Source: Anaeromyxobacter sp. | Lineage (GTDB): Bacteria; Myxococcota; Myxococcia; Myxococcales; Anaeromyxobacteraceae | NCBI GenBank assembly: GCA_049840735.1 | Contig: JASGJN010000013.1 | Location: 32,001 to 96,000, forward strand | Length of the DNA stretch: 64,000 bases | Direction: 5' to 3' | Position numbers and translations under genes: made by a program | In this document: positions 5,203 to 42,187 of the stretch, piece after piece | How the letters are laid out: each line of letters begins with the position of its first letter | How positions within the stretch are numbered: the stretch's first letter is position 1 | The notes under the pieces: generated by a model | What the model was told of the DNA's origin: nothing | The model's database searches: none | Seen by the model: the letters and a program-made list of their open reading frames with translations, nothing else

Positions 5203-5241
5203 GGGGCGGGAGTGTAGCCCGCCCAGGCCCCTCCGCCGCGG

Positions 5242-5952: not shown

Positions 5953-5955
5953 GGC

Positions 5956-7368: not shown

Positions 7369-7383
7369 GTCGGTGCCCCTCTC

Positions 7384-9147: not shown

Positions 9148-9168
9148 GGTCGGGGTCCCGGGGCGGCG

Positions 9169-10422: not shown

Positions 10423-10427
10423 GGCGT

Positions 10428-10949: not shown

Positions 10950-10960
10950 GGCGGCCTTCC

Positions 10961-11511: not shown

Positions 11512-11528
11512 GGTGTCCTGCGACCTCT

Positions 11529-11918: not shown

Positions 11919-12082
11919 AGAAGGTGGGCGGGGGTCGGGGCCCTTAACTGCCTGCGACAACTAGGTTTGTCAATCGGTTTTGCCCCTTGACTGGAACGGG
12001 GCCGTCAGTACCATGCCGTACCGCATGCCCTTTCGGTTTTCCTAGGTTTGCCGAGAGGATAGTTGGCCTTGGAGCACTCCGC
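11919..12082. promoter_or_regulatory. Divergent promoter region for the two nuo operons
   Basis: Lower GC. Plus strand TTGACT (11987), 16 nt, TACCAT (12009). Minus strand TTGACA at 11968-11973. Repeated CTAGGTTTG and TCGGTTTT. Confidence 0.65.
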
Positions 12083-12529
12083 ATGGGTTTCGACTTCGGC
12101 GCGGTCCTCGTGTTCGCCATCGTGGCGGTCGGCTTTGCGCTGGGTGGAATCACCCTGTCCCGCGTCCTGGGGCCAAGGGTCCCCAACCAGGACAAGGCGT
12201 CCATCTACGAGTGCGGAGAGCGCCCCATCGGCGTGGCCTGGTTCAACTTCAACCCGCGCTTCTACCTGGTGGCGCTGGTCTTCGTGATCTTCGAGGTGGA
12301 CATCGCGCTCACCTTCCCGGTGGTCGCGGTCTATCGCCGCTGGGTCGAATCCAGCCCCATGCTCGCCTGGGTCGCGTTCGGCGAGCTGTTCCTCTTCACC
12401 GCCATCCTGGTGGTGGGCCTGGTCTGGGTCTGGGCCCACGGCGACCTGGAGTGGGTGAAGGGGCTGGGCGCGCGCGCGGAGCGGCCGCCCGAGGCGGCGG
12501 CGCCGGAGAAGCCGCGCAGCGCGGCGTAG
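12083..12529 (+). CDS. nuoA: NADH-quinone oxidoreductase subunit A (cluster 2)
   Basis: YECGE, FYLVALVFVIFEVD, GDLEW. Confidence 0.94.
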   Translation: MGFDFGAVLVFAIVAVGFALGGITLSRVLGPRVPNQDKASIYECGERPIGVAWFNFNPRFYLVALVFVIFEVDIALTFPVVAVYRRWVESSPMLAWVAFGELFLFTAILVVGLVWVWAHGDLEWVKGLGARAERPPEAAAPEKPRSAA

Positions 12530-12592
12530 GCCGGCGGAGCAGCGGGCGGGTCGAGGCGGGCGCAGACCAACCGGAGCGGGCGAGGAGCGGCG

Positions 12593-13111
12593 ATGCACGA
12601 CGCAGGCGCACGGCACGGCGAGGGCGAGATCTCGCTCTTCCACACCAGCCAGCTCGATCACCTGATCAACCTGGCCCGCGAGAACTCGCTCTGGTACCTG
12701 CTGTTCGGGCTCGCGTGCTGCGGCATCGAGCTCATCCAGACCGGCGGCCCCCGGGCCGACCTGATGCGCTTCGGCGCCATCCCGCGCGCCTCGCCGCGCC
12801 AGGCCGACTTCATGATCGTGGCCGGCACGCTCACCTACAAGATGGCCGAGCGGGCCAAGCTGCTCTACGACCAGATGTCCGAGCCCAAGTACGTGATCTC
12901 GATGGGCAGCTGCGCCAACTGCGGCGGCCTCTTCCAGCTCGCCTACTCGGTGTGCAAGGGCGTGGACAAGGTCATCCCGGTGGACGTCTACGTCCCCGGC
13001 TGCCCGCCGCGCCCGGAGGCGCTCACCGAGGGGCTGCTGCGGCTCCAGGGAATCGTCCGCCGCGAGCGCTGGGCCGACAAGCGGCGGCCGGCCGGCAGCG
13101 CCGCGCCGTAG
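12593..13111 (+). CDS. nuoB: NADH-quinone oxidoreductase subunit B (cluster 2)
   Basis: [27 protein letters not shown]. Confidence 0.95.
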
Positions 13112-13196
13112 CGCGGGTGATGTCCGGGCGCCCTCGCGGCGCCCGAGCCGTGTGGTGGTTCGAAGAGCCAGCGCCGTCGCTTCACCCGGAGGCCAG

Positions 13197-13802
13197 ATGA
13201 CCACGCAGGAGCTCCACGACCGGCTGCGCGCCCGCTTCGGCGAGGCGGTGGGCCCGCTCACCGAGGCCAAGGTCGACCCCTGGTGCCTGGTGGCGCGGGA
13301 CCGCCTGGTCGAGGTGTGCCGCTTCCTCAAGCAGGAGCCGGGGCTGGAGCTGGACTTCCTCGAGGACCTGACCGCGGTCGACTGGCCGAAGCGGAGCGTG
13401 ATCGAGGTGGTCTACCACCTCCTCTCCTACCGCCACCGGCACGGCCTGGTGCTCAAGGTGGAGGCCGACCGCGCCGCCCCGGTGGTGCCCACCGTGCAGG
13501 GCGTCTGGAAGGCCGCCAACTGGCACGAGCGCGAGGTGTACGACCTCTTCGGCGTGGACTTCCCCGGCCACCCCGACCTGCGCCGGATCCTGCTCCCGGA
13601 CGACTGGGAGGGCCACCCGCTGCGCAAGGACTACCAGGAGGCCGGCGGCTACCACGGCCTGGCCAACGTCCGCGAGAACCCGCTGGTGGAGCTGAAGCGG
13701 CTGGACGACAAGCGCCGCGCCGAGGCCGCCCCGCCGCCGCCGCCTGCCCCGCCCCCCGCGGCCGCCCCCGCCGCGCCCCCCGCCGACGCGCCCAAGGCCT
13801 AG
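13197..13802 (+). CDS. nuoC: NADH-quinone oxidoreductase subunit C (cluster 2)
   Basis: [28 protein letters not shown]. Confidence 0.95.
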   Translation: MTTQELHDRLRARFGEAVGPLTEAKVDPWCLVARDRLVEVCRFLKQEPGLELDFLEDLTAVDWPKRSVIEVVYHLLSYRHRHGLVLKVEADRAAPVVPTVQGVWKAANWHEREVYDLFGVDFPGHPDLRRILLPDDWEGHPLRKDYQEAGGYHGLANVRENPLVELKRLDDKRRAEAAPPPPPAPPPAAAPAAPPADAPKA

Positions 13803-13805
13803 ATC

Positions 13806-14945
13806 ATGGAAAAGCTCATCCTGCGCCGGGTGGACCGCGACAGCGAGGAGATGATCCTCAACTTCGGGCCGCAGCACCCGTCCACCCACGGCGTGATCAA
13901 CTTCGTGGTGGAGACCGACGGCGAGGTGCTCCGGCGCGCCGTCCCGGACGTCGGCTACCTGCACCGCTCCATCGAGAAGATCGGCGAGCTGGTCGGCTAC
14001 CCCGGGTTCATGCCCTTCACCGACCGCGTGGACTACGTGGCGGCCATGTTCGCGAACGAGGGGTACGCCACCGCGGTGGAGCGGCTGCTCAAGCTGGAGA
14101 TCCCGCCGCGCGCCCAGTACCTGCGCCTCATCTCCTGCGAGCTGTGCCGGATCGCCTCCCACCTGGTCTCGGTGGGCACCATGGCCATGGACATCGGCGC
14201 CTTCACGCCCATGCTCCACGGCATCCGCGAGCGCGAGACCATCAACGACCTGCTCGAGGCGCTCTGCGGCGCGCGGCTCACCTACAACTACCACCGCATC
14301 GGCGGCGTGGCCTTCGACCTGCCGGAGGGCTGGCGGGACAAGGTGCTCCGCTTCCTCGACCACTTCGACCGCTTCCTGCCCGAGTTCGACCGGCTGATCT
14401 CGTTCAACGAGGTCTACATCAAGCGGCTGGCCGGCGTGGCCGTCATCCCCGGCCCCATGGCCATCGACTACGGCCTGGTGGGCCCGAACCTGCGCGGCTC
14501 GGGCGTGGACTGGGACCTGCGCCGCGACCTGCCCTACGGCGCCTACCCCGACCTCGCCTTCAAGGTGCCGGTGGGCGAGGGGTTCGTGGGCCAGGTGGGC
14601 GACTGCTTCGACCGGTACTACGTGCGCTGCCTGGAGATGGGCGAGTCCTCGAAGCTGGTCCGCCAGGCGCTGGAGCGGATCCCCGAGGGCGAGTACATGG
14701 CCAAGGTCCCGCGCAAGGTGAAGCCGGAGGCGGGCGAGGCGCTCTCGCGCGTCGAGAGCGCCCGGGGCGAGATGGCCTACTACGTGGTCTCCGACGGCAC
14801 CGAGAAGGCCTGGCGGGTGCGGGCGCGGACCGGCTCGTTCACGGCCATGGGGATCATCGAGGACATCTCGCACGGCCTGATGGTGGCCGACCTGGTGGCC
14901 CTGATCGCTTCACTGGACGTGGTTGCGCCGGAGATCGACCGATGA
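13806..14945 (+). CDS. nuoD: NADH-quinone oxidoreductase subunit D (cluster 2)
   Basis: [22 protein letters not shown]-terminal EIDR. No NiFe-binding CxxC motifs. Confidence 0.95.
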
Positions 14946-16363
14946 CGACCGTCACCACCGAGGCCGCGCAGCGCCACGCGCGGACCCCGCACATCGGCGC
15001 CAACCCGCGCGGCGTGCTGCTGGCCACCCTGGGCTTCGGCCTGGGGCTGCCCTTGCTGCTCTTCTCGGCGGTGCTGGTGCTGTCGCCCATCTCCAAGCCG
15101 GCGCAGCTGGGCCACCTGGTCCAGGCGCTGGGCGCGGCCTTCGGGCAGCAGTGGGATCCCGCCGCCTGGCCGCTCACCGCCCAGCTGCTCCTCTACGGCG
15201 TGTCGGTGCTGGTGCTGGCCTTCGTGCTGCTCAACTTCGGCGCCATCATCTCCGGCATGACCGTCTGGTGGGAGATGCGGGTCTCCTCCCGCATGCAGAG
15301 CCGCGTCGGCTACAACCGCGTCGGCGCCGGCGGCTTCTTCCAGTGGGTGGCGGACGCGGTCAAGCTGCTCTTCAAGGAGGACCTGGTGCCGGCCGAGGCC
15401 GACCAGCTCCTCTTCCGCGCCGCGCCCTACTTCGTGCTGGTCGGCTTCACGCTCACCTTCGTGGCGCTCCCCTTCGGCGAGAGCCTGATCGCCGCCGACC
15501 TGAACGTGGGCATCTTCTACGTCATCGCGGTCACGGCGCTGGTGGTGGTGGGCATCCTGCTGGCCGGCTGGTCCTCCAACTCCAAGTGGTCGCTCTTCGG
15601 CGGCATGCGGTCGGCCGCGCAGGTCATCTCCTACGAGATCCCGGGCGGCCTGGCGGTGATGGTCCCGGTGCTGATGGCCGGCACCCTCTCCATGCAGGGG
15701 ATCATCCGGGCGCAGGGGCCGTGGCCCTGGGACTGGTTCATCTTCGCGAACCCCTTCGCCCCGGTGGCCTTCATCATCTTCTTCATCGCCCAGCTGGCGG
15801 AGGGGAACCGGACCCCGTTCGACCTGCCCGAGGCCGAGTCGGAGCTGGTGGCCGGCTACCTCTCCGAGTACTCCTCCTTCCGCTTCGCGCTCTACTTCCT
15901 GGTGGAGTTCGGCAACCTCTGGGTGATGGCGGCGGTGGCCACCACGCTCTTCCTCGGCGGCTGGCAGGTGCCGTTCACCACCGCGGCGACGTTCGAGGCG
16001 GCGCGCGGCGCCGGCGCCATCCCCGGCGCCGCCTGGTGGGGGCTGCAGGTGCTCTCCATGGCCGTCTTCGCCGTGAAGACGCTGCTGGTCCTGAACCTGA
16101 TCGTCTGGGTGCGCTGGACGCTGCCCCGCATCCGCGTGGACCAGATGATGGCGCTCTGCTGGAAGTACCTCGTCCCCTTCGCCTTCGCCTGCTTCGTGGG
16201 CACGCTGCTCTGGCAGATCCTGCTGGCGCGGGTGCCGCAGGCGCGGCTCTGGACCGGGCTCGCCTGCACGCTCGGGTTCACCGTGGTGGCCTTCTTCTTC
16301 CTCCGCCAGACCCGCCGGAACATCCAGGCCGCCGGCGATCGCGTCGACCTCTCCAACTGGTGA
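14942..16363 (+). CDS. nuoH: NADH-quinone oxidoreductase subunit H (cluster 2)
   Basis: [41 protein letters not shown] overlap with nuoD. Confidence 0.94.
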
Positions 16364-16373
16364 CCGGGCCGCC

Positions 16374-17075
16374 ATGATCCGCTCCTTCCACTCGTACACC
16401 GGCGCCATCCGGGAGACCGTCCGGTCCCTCTGGCACGGCATGTCCATCACGCTCTCGTACCTGGTCCGGCGCCCGACCACGGTCCAGTACCCGGACCGGA
16501 CCCCGATGCCGGTGCGCGACATGCTGCCGCCGCGCTACCGCGGCTTCCTCGAGGTGGACCCGGCCATCTGCACCGGCTGCCAGGCCTGCGAGCGCGCCTG
16601 CCCCATCAACTGCATCCAGATCGTGCTGGAGAAGGACCCGCAGAACCCGAAGCAGCGCGTGGTCACGCAGTTCGACATCGACGAGGCCAAGTGCATGTTC
16701 TGTGGCCTGTGCGTCGAGCCCTGCCCCACCGGCTCGATCCAGCACACGCGCGAGTTCGAGGGCTCGCAGCGAAACATCCGCAACCTGGTCTTCCGCTGGT
16801 CCGACCCGCTCGCCCCCTGGCCGGTCTACAAGGTGGCCAAGGACGCGACCTACTACCCGCGCGTGCCGCTGGGCTCGCTGGTGCGCGCCAAGCTGGAGGC
16901 GCAGGCCTGGGACGCGCCCGGGCCGGTCTTCCTGCCGCCGGACGCGAGCGCGCCGGCGCCGGTGAAGAAGGTGGCGGCGGCGGCGCCCGCCCCCGCGGCC
17001 CCGGCGCCCGCAACCGAAGCCGCGCCCGCAACCGGAACCGGATCCGGTTCCGGTTCCTCCACCACGGGGACCTGA
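16374..17075 (+). CDS. nuoI: NADH-quinone oxidoreductase subunit I (cluster 2)
   Basis: TVQYP, CTGCQACERACP, CMFCGLCVEPCP. Confidence 0.94.
   Translation: MIRSFHSYTGAIRETVRSLWHGMSITLSYLVRRPTTVQYPDRTPMPVRDMLPPRYRGFLEVDPAICTGCQACERACPINCIQIVLEKDPQNPKQRVVTQFDIDEAKCMFCGLCVEPCPTGSIQHTREFEGSQRNIRNLVFRWSDPLAPWPVYKVAKDATYYPRVPLGSLVRAKLEAQAWDAPGPVFLPPDASAPAPVKKVAAAAPAPAAPAPATEAAPATGTGSGSGSSTTGT
17030..17055. repeat. Perfect 26-bp palindrome
   Basis: AACCGGAACCGGATCCGGTTCCGGTT equals its own reverse complement. Confidence 0.85.
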
Positions 17076-17078
17076 CCC

Positions 17079-17759
17079 ATGAACCTCCGCACGCTGGCGA
17101 CCTGGGCCGCGGCCTCGATCCTGGTGGTGGTGTTCGTCGCCACCATGGGGGCCCTGGCCATCGTCCCCGCCGCGCAGGCCGCGCCGCCGCGCGCGCCCGG
17201 CGCGTTCGGCCTCCCCGAGCTGCTCTTCTACGCGCTGGGCGCCGTCGCGCTGGGCGGCGCCGCGGTGGTGGCCTTCGCCCGCAACATCCTCTACACGGCG
17301 GTGGGGCTCCTGGCCGCGCTGCTGGGGGCCGGCGCGCTCTACGTCCTGCTCAGCGCCGACTTCGTGGCCATCACGCAGCTCTTGGTCTACGTCGGCGGCG
17401 TGCTGGTGCTGGTGCTCTTCGCGGTGATGCTCACCAACCGCATCACCGAGGTGAACGTCTCCAACCGCAGCTTCGGCCTCTTGGGCGGCGTCCTGCTGCT
17501 GGTGGCCATGGCCCCGGTCCTGGTGACGGTGGCGGTGTTCACGCCCTGGCGCGCGACCGCGCCCGGGGCGCTGGAGAAGGGCACCACCGCCGCGCTGGGC
17601 GACGCCCTGCTGACCCGCTGGCTCCTGCCCTTCGAGGTGGCCTCGCTGGTGCTGCTGGCCACGCTGATCGGCGCGGTGGTCATCGCCCGCAAGGAGCTCA
17701 AGGCCGACGACCCGCCGGAGGGCCCCGCCGGCGCCCCGGCCCAGGAGGACGCGCCGTGA
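17079..17759 (+). CDS. nuoJ: NADH-quinone oxidoreductase subunit J
   Basis: QLLVYVGGVLVL, LLPFEVASLVLL. Confidence 0.93.
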   Translation: MNLRTLATWAAASILVVVFVATMGALAIVPAAQAAPPRAPGAFGLPELLFYALGAVALGGAAVVAFARNILYTAVGLLAALLGAGALYVLLSADFVAITQLLVYVGGVLVLVLFAVMLTNRITEVNVSNRSFGLLGGVLLLVAMAPVLVTVAVFTPWRATAPGALEKGTTAALGDALLTRWLLPFEVASLVLLATLIGAVVIARKELKADDPPEGPAGAPAQEDAP

Positions 17760-18064
17760 ACATCTCGCTCGCACATTTCCTGGTGGTCGGCGCCGGCCTG
17801 TTCGCGCTGGGGCTGGTGACGGTGGCCACCCGGCGCAACGCGGTCGGCGTGCTGATGGGGGTCGAGCTGATCCTCAACGGCGCCAACGTGAACTTCGTGG
17901 CCTTCGGGCGGTACGTGGGCGGCGGGGTGGGCGGCCAGGTCTTCGCGCTGTTCGTGATCGTGCTGGCCGCCGCCGAGGCGGCGGTCGGCCTCGCCATCGT
18001 GCTGGCCCTCTTCCAGATCTCCAAGTCGATCGACGTCCGCCAGGCGGACCTCCTCCGGGAGTGA
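17756..18064 (+). CDS. nuoK: NADH-quinone oxidoreductase subunit K
   Basis: GTG start, RRN..GVLMGVELILN, AAAEAAVGLA. Confidence 0.93.
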   Translation: MNISLAHFLVVGAGLFALGLVTVATRRNAVGVLMGVELILNGANVNFVAFGRYVGGGVGGQVFALFVIVLAAAEAAVGLAIVLALFQISKSIDVRQADLLRE

Positions 18065-20439
18065 GCATGGAACACGCCGTGGAGCACGCCGCCGGGGCGC
18101 TGGGCCCCATCGCCGTCACGCCGGCCGGCTACCTCTGGCTCATCCCGCTCTTGCCGCTGGTGGGCGCGGCGGTGAACGCGCTGGTGGGCTGGAAGCTGCA
18201 GCAGGTGCTGGGCAGGAGGATCGTCCACCGCATCGCGGTGGCGGCCGTGGCCGGCGCCTTCGGCGTGGCGGTCTACGCCTTCACCCAGCTGCTCGGGCTG
18301 GAGGAGGGGCACCGCCACCTGCAGCAGACGCTCTGGAACCTGCTCACGGCCGGCCGCCTGCAGGTGGACGTGGCCTTCGCCCTGGACCCGCTCTCGATGC
18401 TGATGGTGCTGGTCATCACCGGCGTCGGCACGCTCATCCACGTCTTCTCCATCGGCTACATGGCCGACGAGCCCGCCTACTGGCGGTTCTTCTGCTACCT
18501 GAACCTGTTCGTCTTCGCGATGCTGCTCCTGGTGATGGGGGACAACTTCGCGGTGATGTTCTTCGGGTGGGAGGGCGTGGGGCTCGCCAGCTACCTGCTC
18601 ATCGCCTTCTGGTACACCGACCCGCAGAAGGCCGCCGCCGGCATGAAGGCGTTCGTGGTCAACCGGGTGGGCGACTTCGGCTTCATCCTGGGGCTGTTCA
18701 CGCTCTTCTGGGCCCTGGGCGGCGCCTGGAGCCCGCGGGCCGACGCGCCGCTGCGCCCGGAGTACCGGCCGGCCCCCGGGCTGGCCGCGCTGGCGCCGGC
18801 GGCCACGGCGGCCGAGGGCGCGGCGCTGGCGCCGGAGGTGGCGGGCGTGAAGGTCGGCCCCACCCTCTCCTTCCGCGAGCTGCGCGACCAGGTGACCATC
18901 GAGGCCACCGGCGTGAAGGAGCGGCTGGCCGGCGCCACGCTCCTCGGCCTGCCGGTGCTGGCGCTGGTGGGGTTCCTCTTCTTCGTGGGCGCGATGGGCA
19001 AGAGCGCCCAGCTGCCGCTCTACGTCTGGCTCCCCGACGCCATGGCCGGCCCCACCCCGGTCTCGGCGCTCATCCACGCCGCCACCATGGTCACCGCCGG
19101 CGTGTACATGGTGGCGCGCCTCTCCTTCCTGTTCGCGCTCTCCCCCAGCGCCATGGGCCGGGTGGCCACCATCGGCGCGCTGACGGCGATCTTCGCCGCC
19201 TCGATCGGCTTCCTCCAGCACGACATCAAGAAGGTGCTGGCCTACTCCACCGTCTCCCAGCTGGGCTTCATGTTCATCGGCGTGGGCGTGGGGGCCTACT
19301 GGGCCGGCGTCTACCACCTGCTGACGCACGCCTTCTTCAAGGCCACGCTCTTCCTCGGCTCCGGCTCGGTGATCCTGGGCTGCCACCACGAGCAGGACAT
19401 GCGGAGGATGGGCGGCCTGGGGAGGCTCATGCCCCGCACGCGCTGGACCTACCTCATCGCCTGCTGGGCCATCGCCGGCTTCCCCATCGCCAGCGGCTTC
19501 TACTCGAAGGACGAGATCCTCTGGAAGGCGTTCTCGAGCCACCACCTGGCGCTCTTCGGGGCGCCGGTGCCCTGGCTCGGCCCCGCCATCTACGTGGTGG
19601 GCATCACCGCCGCGGTGGGCACGTCCTTCTACATGTTCCGCTCCTACTACCTGACCTTCACCGGCAGCTACCGGGGAGGCGCGGCGCACGGGGACGACCA
19701 CGGCGCGCACGCGGCGCACGGCGCCCACGGCGCGGCCGGCGCGCACGCCGCGGCCCCGCACGCCGGCGGCCACGGGGGCGGCCACGGCGACGCGCACGGC
19801 CACGCGCCGCACGAGTCGCCCTGGACCATCACCTGGGTGCTGATGGCGCTGGCGGCCGGCTCGGTCCTGACCGCGCTGCTGGGCCTGCCCATGCTCTGGA
19901 CCGGCCACGAGCCGGCGCTGGAGCGCTGGCTCTCGCCGGTGCTGGCCGAGGTGGAGTTCGCCCACGCCCCGCACGCCCTGGAGTGGCTGTTCCAGGGGAT
20001 GGGCGTCCTGGCCGCCTTCGGCGGCTGGGCGGCGGCGCGCGCGCTCTACAAGGACGGCCAGAGCCAGGTGCCGGCGCGGCTCCAGGCCCGCTTCCACGCG
20101 GCCTGGCAGGTGGTCTACGACAAGTACTACGTGGACGAGCTGTACGGCTGGCTGGTGCTCCGCCCCGCCGCCCGCCTGGCCCGCGCCCTGGCCTGGATCG
20201 ACGCGCACGTCATCGACGCGCTGGTGGACCTGGCCGCCTCCGTGACCCGCTTCGTGGCCAGCGTGGACGGCGCCATCGATCGCTACCTGGTCGACGGCGC
20301 GGTCAACGGCGTGGCCGGCGCCACCGCCGCGGCCGGGCGCTCGCTGCGCCGGATCCAGACCGGCCGCATCCAGACCTACCTCTACGGCGCGCTCGGCGGC
20401 GCGCTGGCCGTGGTCCTGCTCAACTTCCTCCTGCAGTAG
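18061..20439 (+). CDS. nuoL: NADH-quinone oxidoreductase subunit L
   Basis: GWEGVG, NRVGD, KSAQLPL..WLPDAMAGPTPVSALIHAATM. Start GTG 18061 or ATG 18067. Confidence 0.96.
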   Translation: MSMEHAVEHAAGALGPIAVTPAGYLWLIPLLPLVGAAVNALVGWKLQQVLGRRIVHRIAVAAVAGAFGVAVYAFTQLLGLEEGHRHLQQTLWNLLTAGRLQVDVAFALDPLSMLMVLVITGVGTLIHVFSIGYMADEPAYWRFFCYLNLFVFAMLLLVMGDNFAVMFFGWEGVGLASYLLIAFWYTDPQKAAAGMKAFVVNRVGDFGFILGLFTLFWALGGAWSPRADAPLRPEYRPAPGLAALAPAATAAEGAALAPEVAGVKVGPTLSFRELRDQVTIEATGVKERLAGATLLGLPVLALVGFLFFVGAMGKSAQLPLYVWLPDAMAGPTPVSALIHAATMVTAGVYMVARLSFLFALSPSAMGRVATIGALTAIFAASIGFLQHDIKKVLAYSTVSQLGFMFIGVGVGAYWAGVYHLLTHAFFKATLFLGSGSVILGCHHEQDMRRMGGLGRLMPRTRWTYLIACWAIAGFPIASGFYSKDEILWKAFSSHHLALFGAPVPWLGPAIYVVGITAAVGTSFYMFRSYYLTFTGSYRGGAAHGDDHGAHAAHGAHGAAGAHAAAPHAGGHGGGHGDAHGHAPHESPWTITWVLMALAAGSVLTALLGLPMLWTGHEPALERWLSPVLAEVEFAHAPHALEWLFQGMGVLAAFGGWAAARALYKDGQSQVPARLQARFHAAWQVVYDKYYVDELYGWLVLRPAARLARALAWIDAHVIDALVDLAASVTRFVASVDGAIDRYLVDGAVNGVAGATAAAGRSLRRIQTGRIQTYLYGALGGALAVVLLNFLLQ

Positions 20440-20454
20440 ACGGGAACGACGCCC

Positions 20455-22098
20455 ATGTTCACGACCGGCAACGTCCTCAGCTGGGCCACCTTCGCGCCGC
20501 TCCTCGGCGCGGCCCTGATCGTGGTCCTCCTCGCGCTCCGCTCCCTGGCCGGCCTCTCCCGCCAGCGCGTGGACGACCTCTCGCGCGTGCTGGCGCTGGC
20601 CGCCAGCGGCGTCTCGCTGCTGGCCGCGGTGGTGGCCTGGCGGCTCTACGACCCGAGCCAGGGCGCGCCGCCGGTGCAGCTGGTCCAGCACCTCCCCTGG
20701 ATCCCGTCCTTCAACGTCGAGTACTTCGTCGGCGTGGACGGGCTGTCCATCTCGATGGTCCTCCTCTCCGGCCTGATCAGCTTCGTGGCCACGGTCGCCT
20801 CCATGCCCTGGTGGTCCGGGGCCCGCGCCGCCGAGCTGGCCGGGATCCACGACGGCCCGGACGACCCGCACCACCCGAAGCACTTCTCGGTCCGGATGGT
20901 GCCGGGCTACATGGCCCTGCTGCTGCTCCTGCAGACCGGCATGATGGGCACCTTCGTCGCCCTGGACATGTTCCTCTTCTACGTGTTCTGGGAGGTCATG
21001 CTCCTGCCGATGTACTTCCTCATCGGCGTCTGGGGCGGGCCGCGCAAGGAGTACGCGGCCATCAAGTTCTTCCTCTACACGCTGGCCGGCTCGGTGCTGA
21101 TGCTGCTGGCCATCATCGGCATCTACTACAACAGCCTCCCGGCGCCGCTGGCCACCGGCGAGCTCTCCGCCGGCCACACCTTCAACCTGATCGAGCTGGC
21201 GCGGCAGGGCGCGGCCGGGCAGTTCGCCCACGCCCCGGCGGTGCTCGGCTTCGACTTCGCCAAGCTGGCCTTCGTCGGGCTCTTCATCGGGTTCGCCATC
21301 AAGATCCCGATGTTCCCCTTCCACACCTGGCTGCCCGACGCGCACGTCGAGGCCCCCACGCCCATCTCGGTGATCCTGGCCGGCGTGCTGCTCAAGATGG
21401 GCGCGTACGGCATCCTGCGCTTCAACTTCGGGATCCTCCCCGAGGCCACCCTCTGGGCGGCCGACGCCATGGCCGCCTTCGGCGTGATCAACGTCGTCTA
21501 CGCCGCCTTCGTCTGCCTGGCGCAGAAGGACCTCAAGCGGCTCATCGCCTACTCGTCGGTCTCGCACATGGGCTTCACGCTGCTGGGCATGGCGGCCATG
21601 ACGCCGGCCGGCATCTCCGGCGCGGTGCTCAACCTCTTCACCCACGGCCTGATCAGCCCCATGCTCTTCCTCATCGTGGGCGTGATCTACGACCGCGCCC
21701 ACCACCGCGAGATCGAGCGGTTCGGCGGCCTGGCCAGCGCGCTCCCCGAGTACTCGGCGGTGATGGGGCTGGCCTTCTTCGCCTCGCTGGGGCTGCCCGG
21801 GCTGGCCGGCTTCGTCTCGGAGTTCATGGTCTTCACCGGCAGCTTCCCACGCTACACCCTCTTCACGGTCCTCGCCGCGACCAGCGTGGTCATCACGGCC
21901 GCCTACTACCTGTGGGCCATCCACCGGATGTTCCTGGGCAAGCTCAACCCCGCCTACGCCGGCTACCCGGACCTCTCCTGGCGCGAGCGGCTCACGCTCT
22001 ACCCGCTGGGCGCCGGCGTGATCCTGCTGGGCGTCTACCCGCAGGCCATCCTGGACGTCATCAACCGCTCGCTCCACGCGCTCCCCGGGATCCACTGA
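20455..22098 (+). CDS. nuoM: NADH-quinone oxidoreductase subunit M
   Basis: FYVFWE, HTWLPDAHVEAP, AYSSVSHMG. Confidence 0.96.
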   Translation: MFTTGNVLSWATFAPLLGAALIVVLLALRSLAGLSRQRVDDLSRVLALAASGVSLLAAVVAWRLYDPSQGAPPVQLVQHLPWIPSFNVEYFVGVDGLSISMVLLSGLISFVATVASMPWWSGARAAELAGIHDGPDDPHHPKHFSVRMVPGYMALLLLLQTGMMGTFVALDMFLFYVFWEVMLLPMYFLIGVWGGPRKEYAAIKFFLYTLAGSVLMLLAIIGIYYNSLPAPLATGELSAGHTFNLIELARQGAAGQFAHAPAVLGFDFAKLAFVGLFIGFAIKIPMFPFHTWLPDAHVEAPTPISVILAGVLLKMGAYGILRFNFGILPEATLWAADAMAAFGVINVVYAAFVCLAQKDLKRLIAYSSVSHMGFTLLGMAAMTPAGISGAVLNLFTHGLISPMLFLIVGVIYDRAHHREIERFGGLASALPEYSAVMGLAFFASLGLPGLAGFVSEFMVFTGSFPRYTLFTVLAATSVVITAAYYLWAIHRMFLGKLNPAYAGYPDLSWRERLTLYPLGAGVILLGVYPQAILDVINRSLHALPGIH

Positions 22099-22101
22099 GC
22101 C

Positions 22102-23655
22102 ATGGACCTCCAACCGCTCGTCCAGGACAACCTGGCCTCGCTGCCGCGCTTCCTCCCGGAGCTCTGGCTGGGGCTGGGCACCCTGGCGCTGTTCCTGCTG
22201 GACGTGATCTGGCGGAGGGCCTCGCCGGCGGCGCGCGTGGCGCGCCTCTCGGTGGCCACGCTGCTGGTGCTGGCCGCGGCCGGCGCGCTGCTGGCCCTGG
22301 CGCCGGTCGCGCCCGGCCCGCTCTTCAACGGCATGCTGGCCACCGACGCCTTCGCCACCTTCTTCAAGTGGCTGTTCCTGGCGGCCGGCGCGGTCACGGT
22401 GCTGCTGGCCGGCGGCGGGCGCGAGGTCACCTCGGCGCGCATCGGCCAGTTCCACGGCCTGCTGGTGGCGGTGGTGCTGGGCATGTTCCTGATGGCCGGC
22501 GCCAGCGACCTGCTCATGATGTACCTGGCCATCGAGCTGGTCTCGATGACCAGCTATGCGCTGGCCGGCTTCCGCAAGGGCGACCGGCGCGCCGCCGAGG
22601 CCTCGCTCAAGTACGTCATCTACGGCGGCGTCGCCTCCGGCGTGATGCTGTTCGGGATGAGCTACCTCTACGGCCTCACCGGCACCTTCTCCTTCGCGGA
22701 GCTGGGGCCGCGGCTGCTGGCGGTGCAGGCGGCGGGGCTGCCCCTGGCGGCCACGCGCGTGGCGCTGGTGGTGGGGCTGGTCTTCGTGGCGGCGGGCATC
22801 GCCTACAAGGTGGCGGCGGTCCCCTTCCACATGTGGTGCCCGGACGTCTACGAGGGCGCCCCCACCCCGTTCACCGCCTTCCTCTCGGTGGGCCCCAAGG
22901 CGGCCGGCTTCGCGCTGGCGCTGCGCTTCTTCCTCTCCGCCTTCGCGCAGGTGGACCCCTCCACCGGCGCGCTGGCGGCGCTGGGCGGCATCCCCTGGCC
23001 GGCCGTGCTGGGCGTCCTGGCGGCCGTCACCATGACGCTCGGGAACCTGACCGCGCTCTCCCAGACCAACCTGAAGCGCCTGCTGGCGTACTCGTCCATC
23101 GCGCACGCCGGCTACGCGCTGATGGGCCTCTCGGCGGTCTCCACCGCCGGGGCGCACGCCGTGATGCTCTACCTGGCCGTCTACCTGGTGATGAACCTGG
23201 GCGCGTTCGCGGTGGTGATCGGCGTGGCCGACGCCACCGGCTCCGAGTCCATCCTCGACTACCAGGGGCTCTCGCGGCGCCAGCCGCTGGCGGCGCTGAC
23301 CTTCGTGGTCTTCCTGCTCTCGCTGACCGGCCTGCCCCCCTTCGCCGGCTTCATCGGCAAGTGGTACCTGTTCACCGCCGTCTGGGAGCGCACCGGCGGC
23401 CCGGGCGGCGGCTGGTACGCGGCCCTGCTGCTGGTGGCGGCGGTCAACACCGCCATCTCGCTCGGCTACTACGCGCGGGTCATCCGGGCCATGTTCCTGG
23501 ACCCGCCGCACGCGGCGGAGGCCGGGCGGCTGCGCTGGCCGGTGGGCCAGCAGCTGCTGCTGGGGGCCTGTGCACTGCTGGTGATCTGGGCCGGCGTGGT
23601 GCCGCAGCCGGTGATCGCCTGGACCCTGGCCTCGGTGAGCATGTTCCGGGGATAG
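22102..23655 (+). CDS. nuoN: NADH-quinone oxidoreductase subunit N
   Basis: EASLKY, PFHMWCPDVYEGAP, KRLLAYSSIAHAG. Confidence 0.96.
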   Translation: MDLQPLVQDNLASLPRFLPELWLGLGTLALFLLDVIWRRASPAARVARLSVATLLVLAAAGALLALAPVAPGPLFNGMLATDAFATFFKWLFLAAGAVTVLLAGGGREVTSARIGQFHGLLVAVVLGMFLMAGASDLLMMYLAIELVSMTSYALAGFRKGDRRAAEASLKYVIYGGVASGVMLFGMSYLYGLTGTFSFAELGPRLLAVQAAGLPLAATRVALVVGLVFVAAGIAYKVAAVPFHMWCPDVYEGAPTPFTAFLSVGPKAAGFALALRFFLSAFAQVDPSTGALAALGGIPWPAVLGVLAAVTMTLGNLTALSQTNLKRLLAYSSIAHAGYALMGLSAVSTAGAHAVMLYLAVYLVMNLGAFAVVIGVADATGSESILDYQGLSRRQPLAALTFVVFLLSLTGLPPFAGFIGKWYLFTAVWERTGGPGGGWYAALLLVAAVNTAISLGYYARVIRAMFLDPPHAAEAGRLRWPVGQQLLLGACALLVIWAGVVPQPVIAWTLASVSMFRG

Positions 23656-23868
23656 GCGCGCGGTCCGATCCGGCGCCGGCCACCCGGCGAGCCGGCGCGG
23701 ATCCGCCAGCGGCGGGCCACATCCGACCACAGGGGTTTCCCCGTAGCGGGCTCGCTGGACGCGCAGCCACGCCGCAGCCCGTTTCCTTGCGGGAGCGCCG
23801 GCCGGCATGCTACCGGCACGGGTAACACCGGCCGTGTCACCGCGGCCGAATGCTCCGGGGGGAAGCCC

Positions 23869-25764
23869 ATGCGCCGCGCCGTCACTGCCCTGTCCCTGTG
23901 CCTTGCCGCGGCCCTCGTCGCGGCCGGCTGCGGGAGCTCCGACTCGAGCTCGCCCAGCTGCGGAGCCTCCGGCGGAGCGTGCTGCGAGGGATCGGTCTGC
24001 AACACCGGCCTCACCTGCAACGCGGGCACCTGCGAGCCGGACCCGGCGGCCTGCGGCCGGCTCGGGGCCGCCTGCTGCGCGACCGCCCCGGCCTGCGCGA
24101 ACGGGGTGGTCTGCCACGCCGGGGTGTGCGGCGGGGGCAGCACCGAGCCGGACACCACCGTCACGCGGTCGGTCTGTGGCACCGGCGCCACCCTGGAGAT
24201 CGCCGGCGCGACGCTGACCATCCCGGCCGGCGCCCTCACCGCCTGCAGGCAGATCACCTTCTCGAGGAGCGTCCTCTCGCCCGGCGGCTACACGCTCTAC
24301 TCCCCGGTGATCGAGGTCTCGCCGGCGACGCTCACCTTCGCGACCCCGGCCACGGTCTCGATCGACTACGTGGCCTCGTCGCAGTCGGCGGCGCTGTTCT
24401 GGTCCCGCAGCGACACCACCGGCTACCTGCCGGTGAACGGGGTCGACGGCGGCACGGCGCTCTCGGGTCCATCAGCCGGGGCGGGTCGGGCTTCGTCGCC
24501 GACGTGCTCGACGTGCAGGAGGAGCCGGACCGGAGCTGCGTGGTCGGCAAGCTGCTGCAGGGCCGCACGCAGGCCGGGTCCTCCACCGTGGCCCTCTTCT
24601 TCTCCTTCGACGACTGCTGGGGCCGCCCGCTGACCGGGCTGCAGGACTCGGACTTCCAGGTGCTGGAGAACGGCTCCCCCATCAGCCCTGCCGAGGCCTC
24701 CGCCACCATCCTGCAGCGCAACGGCGTGCAGGTCTTCGCCTCGCTCGTGATCGACGTCTCCGCCTCGACCCAGCCGCTGCTGCCGCAGGTGATCGAGGGG
24801 GCCAAGGCCTTCGTGACCAGCCTGCAGGTGACGAAGCAGCTCCCGGTCCAGAATCTCCATCCAGCTCTTCGCCGGCGAGGCGGCGCTGACGGAGTGGCAG
24901 GCCCCCACCCTGGACACCGCCAGGCTCCTCGGCAAGCTCGACCAGCTCCCGCTGTACACCCCCGCCGACCGGTCCTCCACCAACCTCAACGGCGCGGTGG
25001 TGACCTCGCTGACGCGCCTCCGCGGGGCCCAGTCCACGTTCATCGCCCGCAACCACGGCGGCGCGTTCACGACCGGCTACGTGGTGCTGTTCACGGACGG
25101 CAGCGACACGGCCGCCCGCGTGAGCGCCGCGGACGCCACCTCGGCCGAGGACGATGGGCCGGAGCAGGTCATCGCGGTCGGGCTCAAGAGCGCGGAGTAC
25201 GACGGCGAGGCCCTGGCCAAGCTCGCGCCCTACGGCGTCATCACCGCGTCCGACTCGACGCAGCTCGCGGCGGCGTTCACGGCGCTGACCGACCGCATCG
25301 AGGGACAGGTCAGCCGCTCCTACCTCCTGGGCTACTGCTCCCCCAAGCGCGCCGGCACCGCGCACGAGGTCACGGTGGAGATCCTGGGGGCGGACAACCA
25401 GGCCAGCCCTGCGTACGAGTTCGACGCCTCGGCGTTCACGCCCGGCTGCTCCACCGCGAGCTTCGCCACCCTGTGCGATGGCATGGCCTGCGGCGGCCTG
25501 GGCTGCGGCGCCTGCGACGACCGGCAGGCGGCGTGTGACCCGGCCACCTGGACCTGCGCCGACTACTGCATGACCGCGCAGCACTGCGACGGCTCCACCT
25601 ACACGAACCCGCTGGGCTACAGCCAGGTCTGCACGGAGGGCGCGTCCAACTCCAGCTGCGGCGGCGCCTGCGTGGACACGCGGGTCAATCCGGACAACTG
25701 CGGGACCTGCGGGCACGCCTGCGCCACCGGGCAGCGCTGCGCCTCCAGCGCCTGCGTGAACTGA
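23869..25764 (+). CDS. Cys-rich VWA-domain lipoprotein (two apparent frameshifts near 24467 and 24852)
   Basis: Lipobox LVAAGC, Cys-rich repeats, MIDAS DVSAS and FTDG, C-terminal CGGACVD...NCGTCGHAC repeat. Pieces join across three ORF-track entries. Confidence 0.75.
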
Positions 25765-35944: not shown

Positions 35945-36730
35945 TCACCGCGGCCCGTAGAAGCTCGCCTCCAGCGTGGTCAGGAACAGGTTCGACAGGG
36001 CGTGCACCACCACCGGCGCCACCAGCCCCCCGGTGCGCTCGCGCAGCCAGCCGAACAGCAACCCTGGGAAGAACGTGGCCAGCCGCCAGGGCTGCAGCAC
36101 CACCAGGTGCCCGGCGGCGAAGAGCAGCTGCGTCCAGAGGAAGCCGGCCCCGAGCCGGGCGCCCAGCACGGTCACGCCGCGCCCGGGCGCGCCCCGGGCC
36201 CAGCTGGTCTGGAGGAACCCCCGGTAGAAGAGCTCCTCCGGCAGCGCCACCACCAGCAGCTGCACCAGCGCCAGCGTGGCGAACCCCTCCGGCAGCCGGG
36301 GCGCGAGGTGCGGGGTGCCGACGTACGGCGCCAGCTGGTGGGCCAGCCCCGCCGGCAGGTTCGGCAGCGCCGCCGCGTAGGCGGCGAAGAGGCCGGCGAA
36401 GGGGGGGAGGATCAAGGCGCACACCAGCAGCCCCTGGCGCACGCCGCGGCCCAGCGCCCGCCAGGTGTCGGGATCGCGCGCCGAGAGGTGCGGCAGGCCG
36501 TACGCGTCCCAGCCCTCCCCCCTGGCCCGCAGCTTCGCGTCGGGCAGCCAGATGAAGAGGAAGGCCGCCACGCCGGCCAGGTTCGCCGCCAGGAGCCCGG
36601 TGGGCTCCAGGAGCGAGAGGCCGCGCGCCAGCGCCAGGCCGCCCACCGCCAGGCACCAGGTGGCCACCAGCGCCCGCCGCGGCAGGGGCGCGGGTGTGGC
36701 GTCGTCGGTCGCAGGGGGCTGCGCGCTCAC
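35945..36730 (-). CDS. CPBP/Abi-family glutamic intramembrane protease, myxosortase-like
   Basis: EELFYRG, LFAAGH and HALSN motifs in a polytopic protein. Confidence 0.88.
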   Translation of the reverse strand: MSAQPPATDDATPAPLPRRALVATWCLAVGGLALARGLSLLEPTGLLAANLAGVAAFLFIWLPDAKLRARGEGWDAYGLPHLSARDPDTWRALGRGVRQGLLVCALILPPFAGLFAAYAAALPNLPAGLAHQLAPYVGTPHLAPRLPEGFATLALVQLLVVALPEELFYRGFLQTSWARGAPGRGVTVLGARLGAGFLWTQLLFAAGHLVVLQPWRLATFFPGLLFGWLRERTGGLVAPVVVHALSNLFLTTLEASFYGPR

Positions 36731-36875
36731 GCGCCGGGGATCTCACGGCCCGGGGAGCCGGTCAACGCTCCTCCCCCTCGAATGTGGGCAGCTTCCCGAC
36801 CTGTGCCGCCAGGCCGCGCGTCCCTCGAACCGGCGACGGGGCGCGTGTTACTCTCCACGCCCAGGAGTGAAAACG

Positions 36876-39800
36876 ATGACCTCTCGCCGCCCGTTCCCCA
36901 GGCGCCGGCTCCTCGCCGGCCTCGTCCCGCTGCTCCTCGTCGCCGCCGCGCTGCCCTTGATGGCGCCGACCTGCGGCGGAGGAGCGGAGGGCTGGCGCAC
37001 CTTCCAGCGGAACTCGCTCATCATCCCCATGGACCGCTGCTGGCAGAACCAGACCGACGCGGTCACGCCGGGCACGGTGGCGAACTGCAGCTCGCCGCAG
37101 ACCGGCGACGTGATCCGCGCCTACGGCCTGGTCTACCAGCTCATCCGCAACAACGTGGCGGTGTACTGGGTCATCAGCCCGGACAAGGCCGCGCTCACCG
37201 GCCAGGACCTGGCCGTCCAGTACTCGGGCGGCTTCCCGGTCCTCAAGTACGACTGGACGGCGGGCGCGCCGGGCGCGGGGCTCGGCGCCGATCACACCAT
37301 CCGCTACCTGGGCGGCCCCTTCATCGTGGACGGGTCCGACTACGACAAGGCGGTGGCGGTGCTGGCCAGGTACCGCACCAGCTTCTCGGCCGTGAACGTG
37401 CACGTGTCCAACGTGGCCTTCCGCGGCTACGTGAAGAAGACCATGGCCGGCGGCTGGAACGCCGGCGGCACCGTGCCGCCCAAGCTGGCGCTGCTCGACA
37501 TCGGCAGCGGCAACATCTCCAGCCTGAGCCCGCTCGCCATCCGCGACCCCAAGAACGCCGAGCCGGTGATCTCCGGCTACCTGAACCGCGCCGGCATCGG
37601 CTCCGGGACCGCGGCCGGCACCGCCACCGGCACGCACGGCGAGATCTACGACCGGCTCACCATCGACGACTTCCAGCCGGCCTCCGGCTCCACCGACCCC
37701 ACCACCAGCCGCCTCTTCACCAACGGCTACCAGATCCTCTGGGTGCCGCACTGGGTCGCGCCGGGCTCCTGCTCCAACTACAGCTCCACCACCAACTGCG
37801 CCAACAGCAAGTACAGCGACGCGCGCATCGCGCAGACGCTCCAGACCATCGGCGCCTTCGTGGCCTCCGGCAAGGACGTGTTCGCCGAGTGCGCCGGCAT
37901 GGGCAGCTTCGAGGGCGCGTTCAAGCGCGGGAACGCCGGCACCTCGGACAGCGCCTACACCATCGACTACCAGAAGGGCGATCCGAGCACGCGGTTCCAG
38001 ACGCTCAACGGGCTCCGCTACAACGAGCTGCCCAACAACCCGTTCCCCGCCCCCACCTTCCCCGGCAACTTCAGCTCCCCGCTGCTGCAGCTGGGCGACT
38101 TCCCGTTCTCGCCCTACACCGGCGCGATCGAGGACTACCGGCCCCAGAACCCCACCTCCGGCGGCGGCTACCACGCCGACGTGACGCGGCTCATCCGCGG
38201 CACCGCCGGCGGCGCCAACACCTCCTACGGCGACCCCTACGACGCCTGGGACTACTTCACCATCCGTCCCTCCGCCTCCGGCCGCGGCACCATCGTGTAC
38301 CTGGCCGGCCACAGCTACTCCGGCGTCCAGGGCACGTTCCAGGTGGCCGGCTCGCGCCTGGTGCTCAACACCCTCTTCAACCTGGGCGCGGGCTGCACCG
38401 ACAGCGGCGTGACCTGCGACACCGGCAAGCTGGGCGTCTGCGCCAAGGGCACCCTGGCCTGCTCCCAGAGCGGCGCGTCGGTGTGCACCCAGTCCGTCTT
38501 CCCCAGCGCCGAGACCTGCAACGGCCTGGACGACGACTGCGACGGCCTGGTGGACGAGGACCTCGAGGTGGGCTGCTACGACGGCCCGGCCGCCACCCGG
38601 AACGTGGGGCTCTGCCGGCAGGGCGTGAGCGCCTGCGAGCGGAAGACCGACGGCAGCTACGGCATGAGCGCCTGCGTCGGCCAGGTGCTGCCGGCGGACG
38701 AGGTCTGCAACGGCCTCGACGACAACTGCAACGCCACCGTGGACGAGGCGCTGCAGCAGGCCTGCTACTTCGGCCCGCTCTCCTCGCTCGACGACCAGGG
38801 CCGGCCGCAGGGCGCCTGCAAGGCGGGCACCCAGACCTGCAGCCAGGGCACCTGGGGGGAGTGCGCGGTCTGCCCGGCCGGCATCCAGCCCTCCGACCCG
38901 GGCTACGCCGCCTGCCAAATCCTGCCGGCGGGCGAGACCTGCCAGGACACCACCGACGTCGACTGCAACGGCTACGTGAAGGAGCTGGCCGGCGAGTGCG
39001 GCAGCTGCACGCCGGGCGCCACGGCCACCTGCTACACCGGTCCGGGCGGCACGGTGAACGTGGGCCTCTGCCACGCCGGCACCCAGACCTGCAGCTCCAG
39101 CGGGAGCTGGGGCCCCTGCGTCGGTGAGGTCAAGCCGGTCTCCGAGAATCTGCACCGCCACCGGCGGCACGCCGCGCGACGAGGACTGCGACCACGAGCT
39201 CGACGAGGGCTGCGCCTGCCGCGACGGCGACACCGAGTCCTGCTACACCGGCCCGACCGGCACCGAGGGCAACGGCATCTGCGTCGCCGGCCACCGCACC
39301 TGCGCCAGCGGCCAGTTCGGCGAGGCCTGCGAGGAGCAGGTGCTGCCCATCCCCGAGACCTGCAACGGCAAGGACGACGACTGCGACGGCGCCGTCGACG
39401 ACGGCGCCACCTGCGCCTCGGGCTTCTCCTGCGAGCACGGCGTCTGCGTGCCCAGCTCCTGCGGCGTGGAGAACGCCTGCCCGGAGGGCTACGACTGCAA
39501 GGTCCCGTCCGGCGCCAGCGCCGCGACCTGCGTGCTCGGCAGCTGCGGCGGCACCACCTGCGCCGACGGCAAGGAGTGCCAGTACGGCAGCTGCGTGGAC
39601 CCCTGCGACAACGTCACCTGCGGCGCCGGCGCCACCTGCGCCTCCGGCGCCTGCGTGGGCGGCAGCTGCTACTTCGAGGGCTGCCCGGCCGGCCAGCTGT
39701 GCCGCAACGGCAACTGCGCCGCCGACGCGTGCGACGGCGTGACCTGCCCCTACGGCACCTTCTGCCGCGAGGGCGACTGCGTGCAGGCCTGCACCTTCGT

Positions 39801-42187
39801 CAGCTGCCGCAGCGGCGAGAAGTGCGGCACGGACGGCTTCTGCGAGTCCGACCCGTGCGCCAACCGGACCTGCGGCCCGACCCAGACCTGCGTGGCCGGG
39901 ACGTGCGTCGAGGACCCGTGCCTGGGCCTCGGCTGCGGCCAGGGCCAGGTCTGCAAGGCCGGCGTGTGCGTTGACGACGCCTGCAACGGCATCTCCTGCC
40001 CGGCCGGCCAGTGCCTCCAGGGCCAGTGCTACCCGGTGGGCAACCCGCAGGACGTGACCACGCCCACGAAGGAGACCAGCAGCGGCGGCTGCGGCTGCGG
40101 GACCGGCGCCGCCAGCCCGCTCACCGCCCTGCTGTTCCTGCTGGCGGTGCCGCTGGCCCGGCGCCGCCGCGGCGGCCAGGGCACCGGCCGCTGGGCCGCC
40201 CTGGCCCTGCTGCTGGTCGCGGCGGGCGCCAGCGGCTGCTCCTCCAAGAGCGACGGCGTCCCGGACCTGGCCCGCTGCGCCGGAGACCGGCGGGACGGTG
40301 TGCGAGGGCGAGAACCGCTGCATCGACACCTGGACCGACCCGGCCCACTGCGGCTACTGCGGCAACGCCTGCGGGGCCGGCAACGTCTGCGTGGACAAGA
40401 CCTGCGGCCCGGCCAGCGGCGTGGCCCCGTTCATCACCGGCCTCTCGCCCGGCTCCGGCCCCAAGGGCGGCTCGGCCCCCGTCACCGTCCAGCTCAACGG
40501 CCAGCGCTTCGCCCAGGGCGCCACCGTGCGCAGCGTCACCCCGGCCGGCACCCACACCTACGAGACCACCTGGGTGTCGGCCTCCTCGCTGCACGTGGAC
40601 CTCGACCTGTCCGCGTCGCCCGCCACCATCAGCTACCTGCGGGTGGTGAACCCGGACAAGGTGATCTCCAACCCGGTCCGCTTCGAGATCACCACCCCCA
40701 CGCCGGCCATCACCGGGCTCTCCCCGGCCGGCGCCGTCACCGGCCAGGTGACCCAGTTCACCGTGGCCGGCACCGGCTTCCTGGCCGAGAGCGAGTGCCA
40801 CTACTCGGGGCAGGGCAACGCCCAGGCGCTCCTCACGGTCGTGAACGGCGACGGCACGCTGACCTGCACCTTCGACGCGACCTCCCTGCCGCCCGCCACC
40901 GGCTTCCAGCTCTGGGTGGAGAACCCGGCCCTGCCCACCTCGGTCGCCTCCCAGCCCCGCTCCTTCAACGTGATCAGCGCGACGCCGGTGGTGAACAGCG
41001 TCAGCCCGAGCCAGGCGGCGTCCAACGAGGCGGTGGCCTTCACCGTGGACGGCGACGGCTTCGACGTCACCAGCCAGGTGCTCTTCGACGGCACGCCCCT
41101 CACCGCCACCACCTTCGTCTCGGCGCGCCAGCTCTACATCCCGCAGTACCTGCCGGCGGCCTGCTCCAGCGGCACCTGCCCGCACGTCGTCCGCGTCCGG
41201 AACGGCACCGCCGGCACGCCCTCCGAGACCTCCGCGACGTTCTACGTCGGCGCGCAGCCGCCGCAAATCACCGGCCTCTCGCCCGGCTCCGCCTATCAAG
41301 GCGCCACCGACGTGGTCCTCACCTTCACCGGCAGCGGCTTCCCGACCGGCACCCAGCTGCAGCTGCAGCCGCCCGGCGGCGCCTTCGGGACGCCCATCAG
41401 CGCCACCGTCAACGGCACCGGCACCCAGGTCACCGCCGTCGTGCCCTCGTTCGTCGACAGCCCCGTGGGCACGGCGCCGGAGGGCACCTGGCTGGTCCGG
41501 CTGGTCTACCCGGGCCCCATCAACTCCGCCTCCTACCCGTTCCGCCTGCTCTCGAACCTGGCCACGCTGGTGAGCTCCAACGTGCGCGGCGAGATGCAGG
41601 GCAAGCAGGTGACGGTCACCCTCTCCGCGGTGAACCTGCGCCCCTCGGCGGCGGCCACCGTCGACCGGGACATCCGGGTGGTGTTCGCCGGCCAGGACCG
41701 GACGCCCAGCGCCGTCAACATCACGCAGGCCTCCTCCGGCACCGGGACCGTCACGGTCCAGCTCAGCACGGTGGACCTCGACACCGGCACCTACACGGTG
41801 CAGGTGAGGAACCCGAGCGCCCAGCCCTCCAACGCGCTCTCCTTCAACGTCACCCCCGGCCAGCCCACGGTGGTCACCGTCACCCCGTCCAGCGCGGTCC
41901 AGAGCGACACCCCCACGCTGATCGTGCTGACCGGGACCAACTTCGCGAAGCCGGACGCCAGCGGCAACGGCGGCTCCATCGTGCACGTGGCCTCGACGGC
42001 GCTGGGCATCCTCGACTTCGCGCTGCCGGCCTCGGCCACCACGGTGGTCAACTCGAAGCGGCTCGAGGTGCGGTTCGACACCCGCACCGGCGTGCCGGGC
42101 ACCTACGACGTCTCGGTCTGGAACCCGGGCGGCCCGACCCCGCCCCAGAAGTCCAACTCGCTCACCGGCGCCTTCACGATCCAGTAG
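36876..42187 (+). CDS. Giant Cys-rich surface protein (about 1770 aa) with internal MYXO-CTERM-like signal, second lipoprotein signal and IPT/TIG-like repeats. Apparent frameshifts near 39147 and 40282.
   Basis: AGGAG RBS, signal ending MAPTC, ETCNGLDDDCDG repeats, GGCGC-TM-RRRR at 40084-40170, ASGC lipobox at 40228-40239, P.ITGLSP repeats. Confidence 0.78.

Follow-up and report, generated by a model that had tools for sequence, protein, structure and literature searches.

The MYXO-CTERM tag was defined by Pathak (2012), and the described system closest to the one reported here is that of TraA in Myxococcus xanthus. The myxosortase MrtX cleaves the tag of TraA and requires the Cys of that tag, also in E. 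coli (PMC11980579). The same paper places mrtX of Anaeromyxobacter divergently adjacent to MYXO-CTERM open reading frames (ORFs) (Guo, Haft, and Wall 2025, PMC11980579); it describes internal tags as rare, calls MXAN_5598 atypical, and proposes for it a gene fusion with processing of the N-terminal part. An internal MYXO-CTERM (MXAN_5598) and the mrtX pairing of Anaeromyxobacter are known already, whereas a second signal does not appear in the published passages considered here: the consulted text of Guo et al. 2025 (PMC11980579) does not mention one, and the consulted part of the preprint by Haft (bioRxiv 10.1101/2023.06.07.544157) mentions no internal tags, polyproteins, lipoproteins, or Anaeromyxobacter. 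In the openly accessible literature searched here, we found no description of a polyprotein that joins an internal tag to a second signal.

Here, we analyzed a 64,000-nucleotide stretch of an Anaeromyxobacter genome (referred to as the window), in which mrtX neighbors a gene for a predicted polyprotein. The locus resembles TraA and MrtX of M. xanthus in its tag, its protease family, and a Cys-rich stalk beneath a head domain, but in the window 700 residues separate the tag from the C terminus, and a lipoprotein signal and then a second protein come after the tag. Identity with TraA was rejected, as the head is GATase1-like rather than PA14-like and there is no adjacent traB. With MXAN_5598, an adhesin joined to a barrel/OmpA part and compared here by its published description, the locus shares the internal tag, the proposed fusion, and the proposed processing of the N-terminal part, but the second signal of the window is of the lipoprotein type and the domains are unrelated. 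A layout like that of MXAN_5598 does occur in the window's genome, in a protein that combines Kelch/Ig domains, a tag, a TraB-like barrel, and OmpA.

Sorting tags in the middle of a protein have other parallels. A substrate of ArtA in Haloferax, from work attributed to Abdul Halim in 2017, reportedly carries a non-terminal tripartite signal, and the NCBIfam entry 'midcut-by-XrtH' (NF033207) likewise has its tag mid-protein. The protease families of both differ from that of the window, where the match to NF033207 is below the cut-off, and we know of no re-export of the downstream part in either system. In Bradyrhizobium, FbcH is a cytochrome b-c1 precursor that is cut at an internal signal. Like the gene predicted here, it gives two proteins from one bacterial gene through an internal signal peptide; unlike it, FbcH uses signal peptidase I only, yields respiratory subunits, and has neither a sorting tag nor lipid anchors.

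The predicted polyprotein gene in the deposited sequence

The polyprotein gene begins with an ATG at 36876 on the plus strand, 145 bp from the divergent mrtX (35945 to 36730, minus strand), and no match to a sigma-70 promoter or a terminator was found in this gap. Its neighbors are mrtX, a dGTPase, a response regulator, and gltX. Farther away in the window, positions ~5200 to 23700 hold the nuo (complex I) genes, as judged from translations read by eye, and an ORF at 24832 to 25761 (plus strand) has terminal Cys-rich repeats that resemble the module after the second Cys of the polyprotein.

The preliminary description presented the gene as one continuous ORF, which the deposited sequence does not bear out. 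As deposited, the gene is spread over three frames, with switches at ~39150 and ~40285 according to codon-position GC. The frame opened by the ATG at 36876 ends at a stop at 39974, and the IPT part (630 aa) sits in a third frame, entered near 40282 and closed by the TAG at 42185-42187. Reading the frames against relatives placed one duplicated base each at 39147-39148, within the Cys-rich stalk, and at 40282-40283; by arithmetic only, their removal gives a predicted polyprotein of 1,769 aa. These extra bases are likely sequencing or assembly errors. That the family encodes a polyprotein while the window's own copy is truly broken, as a pseudogene or a phase-off gene, would fit the two frame switches that the assembly carries, but we consider it quite unlikely, as each switch is a single duplicated base and third-position GC holds at 0.93-1.0 along the whole gene. 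The adjoining DnaK-like gene (~33200, minus strand) is likewise frameshifted in comparison with four relatives, which points to indel errors in the window's assembly. A conservative and crude scan, which missed the known sites in the polyprotein gene, adds weak evidence in the same direction: in 2.47 Mb of the window's genome it counted 25 phase switches free of stops, and in 0.32 Mb of comparison loci, where ~3 were expected, it counted 0.

The internal tag and the second signal

The central observation of the preliminary description, an internal MYXO-CTERM that runs into a second signal, was borne out in a single frame with zero stops. The tag (40075 to 40170, plus strand) begins with TSSGGCGCG at 40075, has the Cys codons of its GCGC motif at 40090 and 40096, and passes through a hydrophobic, transmembrane helix to RRRR at 40159-40170. 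The sequence then continues through GGQGTGR and a second hydrophobic stretch to ASG-C, with its Cys at 40237; the lipoprotein-type signal, with a basic n-region that includes RRRR, spans 40159 to 40239 (plus strand). The proposed scoring with TIGR03901 gave values above the cut-off of 20, namely 22.7 bits for a 94-aa junction piece and 20.2 bits for a 373-aa piece, and the junction reached 24.1 bits in a genome-wide scan; the tags of several relatives fall slightly below the cut-off (19.0 and 16.8 bits). The protein thus has the Cys motif, transmembrane helix, and Arg cluster of a MYXO-CTERM protein, along with a conserved N-terminal leader of 33 basic and hydrophobic residues (read by eye), but its tag is not terminal: ~670 residues follow it in the predicted polyprotein, and a stop beyond the Arg cluster is absent from every orthologous locus.

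The same arrangement is found in relatives. Of 301 genomes of the order, 101 gave a match to the head domain, and the match was strong in 53 of the 91 other genomes of the window's family; some matches are distant paralogues. None of our claims draws on the unpublished genome G180. From 59 regions taken around head matches (60, with one split), we set aside 11 loci with PilY1-like or C-terminal-head proteins and counted 49 orthologous loci, which span the window's family and two others. A single ORF runs uninterrupted from the N-terminal signal to the C-terminal repeats in 39 of the 49, five end with their contig, and five are frameshifted, two of them across the junction itself and still without a stop; a stop after the Arg cluster was seen in 0 of the 49, though the relatives share phylogeny and such counts overstate independence. 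Two named isolates belong to these loci and agree, Anaeromyxobacter sp. PSR-1 (L249, a frame of 1,768 aa) and A. oryzae Red232 (L256, a frame of 1,830 aa). A pattern search of the best 150 cluster representatives found an internal tag with a second signal in 27 and a terminal tag in one (P0036), which consists of the first half alone ending in its MYXO-CTERM. The other 122 showed neither and comprise fragments, PilY1-like proteins, and other fusions; P0048 holds a further junction that the pattern missed.

In 40 aligned junctions, the two Cys are the sole invariant columns, and the frame is always retained although they lie 42 to 72 codons apart. The second Cys is preceded by G in 22, A in 16, and S in 2, and by A in three more junctions read separately, so that G/A/S stands at -1 in 43 of 43. 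The background is 35% (2,779 Cys in 28 family proteins), whereas 128 of the 136 N-terminal signal-plus-Cys sequences of the window's genome follow the rule. Position -3 is Ala/Gly in 34 of the 40, whereas Leu is the top residue there in the N-terminal signals of the window's genome (60 of 136); by sequence, this is a mild departure. The segment before the second product has the n-region, hydrophobic region, small -1 residue, and invariant Cys of a bacterial lipoprotein, but it is internal rather than at the N terminus of the translated chain. The proposal that RRRR also serves as the n-region of the second signal stood in part: it fits the shortest junctions only, and many relatives add a basic linker, with 21 to 51 residues between the Arg cluster and the second Cys.

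The predicted products and the myxosortase

An N-terminal export signal is present as proposed, but MAPTC, with which it was identified, forms the end of a 33-residue signal (36876 to 36974, plus strand) that starts with MTSRRPF at 36876. The Cys of APTC was rejected as a standard lipobox because the -1 rule is broken; it is among the 8 of 136 signal-plus-Cys N termini of the window's genome without G/A/S at -1. It is retained where the head is internal, and its occurrence is paired with that of a Cys immediately behind the head domain. Taken together, these features of the sequence make it probably a disulfide partner rather than a lipid site. Tat export through RRRLL was also rejected, since the twin Arg is missing there in many relatives.

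The 476-aa head (36966 to 38393, plus strand) matched no Pfam or NCBIfam family, and a sequence comparison with the PDB returned no useful match, while Atlas matches were all under 0.9. Its structural model (pLDDT of 91) is predicted to have a class I glutamine-amidotransferase-like (ThuA/GATase1) fold: residues 170 to 476 aligned with 4jqs at a Z of 13.4 (rmsd of 3.7, 228 residues aligned), and many GATase1/ThuA entries followed at a Z of 9 to 12. The head has an invariant Cys (codon at 37890) and two invariant His (38310 and 37749). In the model, Cys309 occupies a strand-helix elbow between strand 304-308 and helix 310-316, and His449 comes after the last strand. Neither varies across 52 rows, and among aligned representatives Cys309 is conserved in 138 of 141 and His449 in 135 of 138. 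There is no Glu at His+2. We give about even odds that Cys309 and His449 form a putative Cys-His hydrolase or ligand site, and Cys309 could alternatively pair with the invariant Cys41 as a disulfide. The head profile matched 1,304 representatives, with relatives in Nitrospirota and Geobacteraceae records. GATase1-like heads also open Myxococcaceae proteins of 1,300 to 1,600 aa with weak PilY1 propeller matches below the cut-off (L102 to L107 and L120), and they close 700-aa proteins of another family (L096 to L098). Their position at the front of PilY1-like proteins fits an outward-facing role. Among published PilY1 proteins, the consulted text of PMC13190605 gives no N-terminal domains besides vWFA and DUF4114. 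In the window, the head is followed by a Cys-rich stalk (38394 to 40074, plus strand) of PF11617 (MopE-type) repeats, short Cys-rich repeats, and a Thr/Pro linker.

The predicted second product of ~650 aa (40237 to 42187, plus strand) consists of a Cys-rich module, which is MXAN_6577-like below the cut-off, and six choice-of-anchor Z/IPT-TIG repeats (NF058597, 134.8 bits over six stretches with a cut-off of 30, and a match to PF01833). Stand-alone choice-of-anchor Z proteins carry a lipoprotein-like N-terminal signal, read by eye, in 14 of the 15 loci with the start in view (of 30 surveyed, with the start outside the locus in 11 and four unparsed). No stand-alone close homologue of the second half was found among 44 matches, the close ones being short-contig fragments or frameshifted assemblies, and a metagenome scan for a stand-alone first half returned only repeat-sharing proteins. 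Lys is the most frequent residue at +2 after the second Cys (14 of 40 junctions), and in M. xanthus, according to the consulted text of PMC3222651, a +2 Lys is associated with inner-membrane lipoproteins; the second product may therefore remain at the inner membrane. Some polyproteins carry a further, terminal MYXO-CTERM at the end of the second half, which would then be anchored at both ends (L153 and L155) or sorted twice; L174 and L187 also belong here.

The neighboring protease has the intact EExxxR, FxxxH, and HxxxN motifs first described for it (EELFYR, FAAGH, and HALSN). Its resemblance to known myxosortases holds, with a match to MrtX (NF040593) of 211.6 bits against a cut-off of 180, and we assign it to this group of CPBP/Rce1 glutamic intramembrane proteases from this score, the three motifs, and its single occurrence in the window's genome. 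The window's genome has three PF02517 genes, and MrtX is the only one of two matches to the Mrt core (NF040914) that lies over the cut-off. Of the 49 orthologous loci, 35 have a divergent mrtX, eight have it downstream in the same orientation, and six have none, one of these for want of flanking sequence. In a shorter subfamily, mostly with frames of 1,300 to 1,470 aa (L099 to L101 and L112 to L116), mrtX lies directly downstream on the same strand. We rejected a dedicated protease-substrate pair: in four genomes tested of two other families, mrtX and the polyprotein gene are on separate contigs, and one genome (G023) has mrtX with no polyprotein found. By this distribution, MrtX is a housekeeping enzyme of the cell, and its linkage to the polyprotein gene has outlived a rearrangement without being required.

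Proposed processing of the precursor and the joint in other proteins

Joints of the same kind occur in unrelated proteins. In six genomes, 9 of 76 TIGR03901 matches are internal, in a scan that scored part of the candidates and missed known joints, and a second signal follows all nine; it is A-x-A in seven, and the other two belong to the polyprotein family of the window. Among 79 metagenome loci, 3 of 12 tags are internal, each with a lipobox. A junction profile run on 301 genomes of the phylum gave many stop-free, full-length matches. We chose 20 of these matches, 19 of them for being stop-free, so that no frequency can be derived from them. Nineteen proved to be single ORFs; they come from five further families, and their domains are unrelated. 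Of the 19, 16 have a lipoprotein-type second signal, and three have A-x-A preceding a barrel/OmpA. The window's genome itself has a second internal MYXO-CTERM on contig C26 (~470500 to 475700; L121:6532-11676, plus strand), in a protein of 1,714 aa without a frameshift that has, in order, an N-terminal lipobox, Kelch and Ig repeats, the tag, an A-x-A signal, a TraB-like barrel (NF033763, 191.6 bits, below the cut-off), and OmpA. In this protein and in L163, L165, and L169, an outer-membrane barrel comes next and the second signal is A-x-A; a barrel of this kind has to get out of the inner membrane, which we count in favor of a joint that is cut. At the level of sequence, the succession of MYXO-CTERM, Arg cluster, and second signal appears to be a general design in Myxococcota.

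We consider it likely that a precursor of ~1,770 residues inserts as a hairpin and is cut by MrtX and by Lgt/LspA processing into two lipid-anchored proteins. Sec would export the first 1,070 residues until the MYXO-CTERM helix stops transfer; the Arg cluster would remain cytoplasmic, and the second helix would restart export of the last 650 residues, resulting in a membrane hairpin with one Cys per periplasmic side. As has been proposed for TraA, cleavage by MrtX would take place after the lipidated first Cys, and the first product, the GATase1-like head on its Cys-rich stalk, would keep a C-terminal anchor and be carried to the surface through type II secretion. At the second Cys, lipidation and cleavage would fall to Lgt and LspA, both encoded in the window's genome, which would leave the Ig-like repeats of the second product as an ordinary lipoprotein anchored by its N terminus. 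The hairpin peptide would be discarded, and the fusion would give both products in equal numbers at one place. Comparison supports the two-product reading well, through the single ORFs of relatives, the conserved lipobox, the lack of a conserved restart, and the joint elsewhere. Counted against it are the departure at position -3 of the second lipobox, the frameshifts in the window's copy, the lack of a precedent in our literature search for Lgt/LspA acting so far into a chain, and the fact that, for tags with so long a C-terminal extension, cutting by MrtX is no more than a published proposal.

A single cut would free the first product by MrtX and leave the second half on the hairpin, or free the second product by LspA and leave both helices on the first. 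The frequent +2 Lys, with its inner-membrane link in M. xanthus (PMC3222651, consulted text), would suit such an outcome, and our literature search found no precedent for internal lipobox processing and no description of Lgt/LspA acting 1,100 residues into a chain; both Cys are nevertheless invariant and the -1 rule holds in 43 of 43 junctions, whereas a site out of use ought to drift, and we regard a single cut as unlikely. Drift would equally be expected of relics in a chain that is never cut and would sit in the inner membrane by two helices, with a large periplasmic arm on either side and motifs left over from a gene fusion, yet these motifs do not vary across three families, outer-membrane barrels follow sister junctions, and head homologues on PilY1-like proteins point outside. 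A fusion origin is plausible in itself: in the linker of P0033, a Met is still present ahead of what looks like a normal lipoprotein signal, and L171 has a terminal-tag gene followed by a separate lipoprotein gene in frame. We consider an uncut protein very unlikely all the same. It is barely credible that an internal in-frame start yields the second product separately; the window does have an in-frame GTG at 40147, just upstream of the Arg cluster, but no Shine-Dalgarno-like sequence precedes it, 22 of the 40 junctions have no ATG, GTG, or TTG in frame from the first Cys up to the second helix, and no stop is available to terminate the first product.

Beyond processing into two anchored proteins in the window, we lean toward a broader reading, in which Myxococcota use a general, virus-like joint of MYXO-CTERM, Arg loop, and second signal for any two exported proteins, with Lgt/LspA acting more than 1,000 residues into the chain; the Anaeromyxobacter gene would be an ancient, myxosortase-linked case with a new Cys-His hydrolase-like head that is shared with pilus-tip proteins. 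About one in eight sampled MYXO-CTERM matches (9 of 76) is such a joint; if these are cut as predicted, many myxobacterial envelope proteins annotated as one would be two, and their lipoprotein halves would escape signal predictors. Lipoprotein maturation would then need no N-terminal signal, and bacteria would make secreted polyproteins through a reusable membrane hairpin, a joint that may offer a route to the co-display of two proteins at a fixed ratio.
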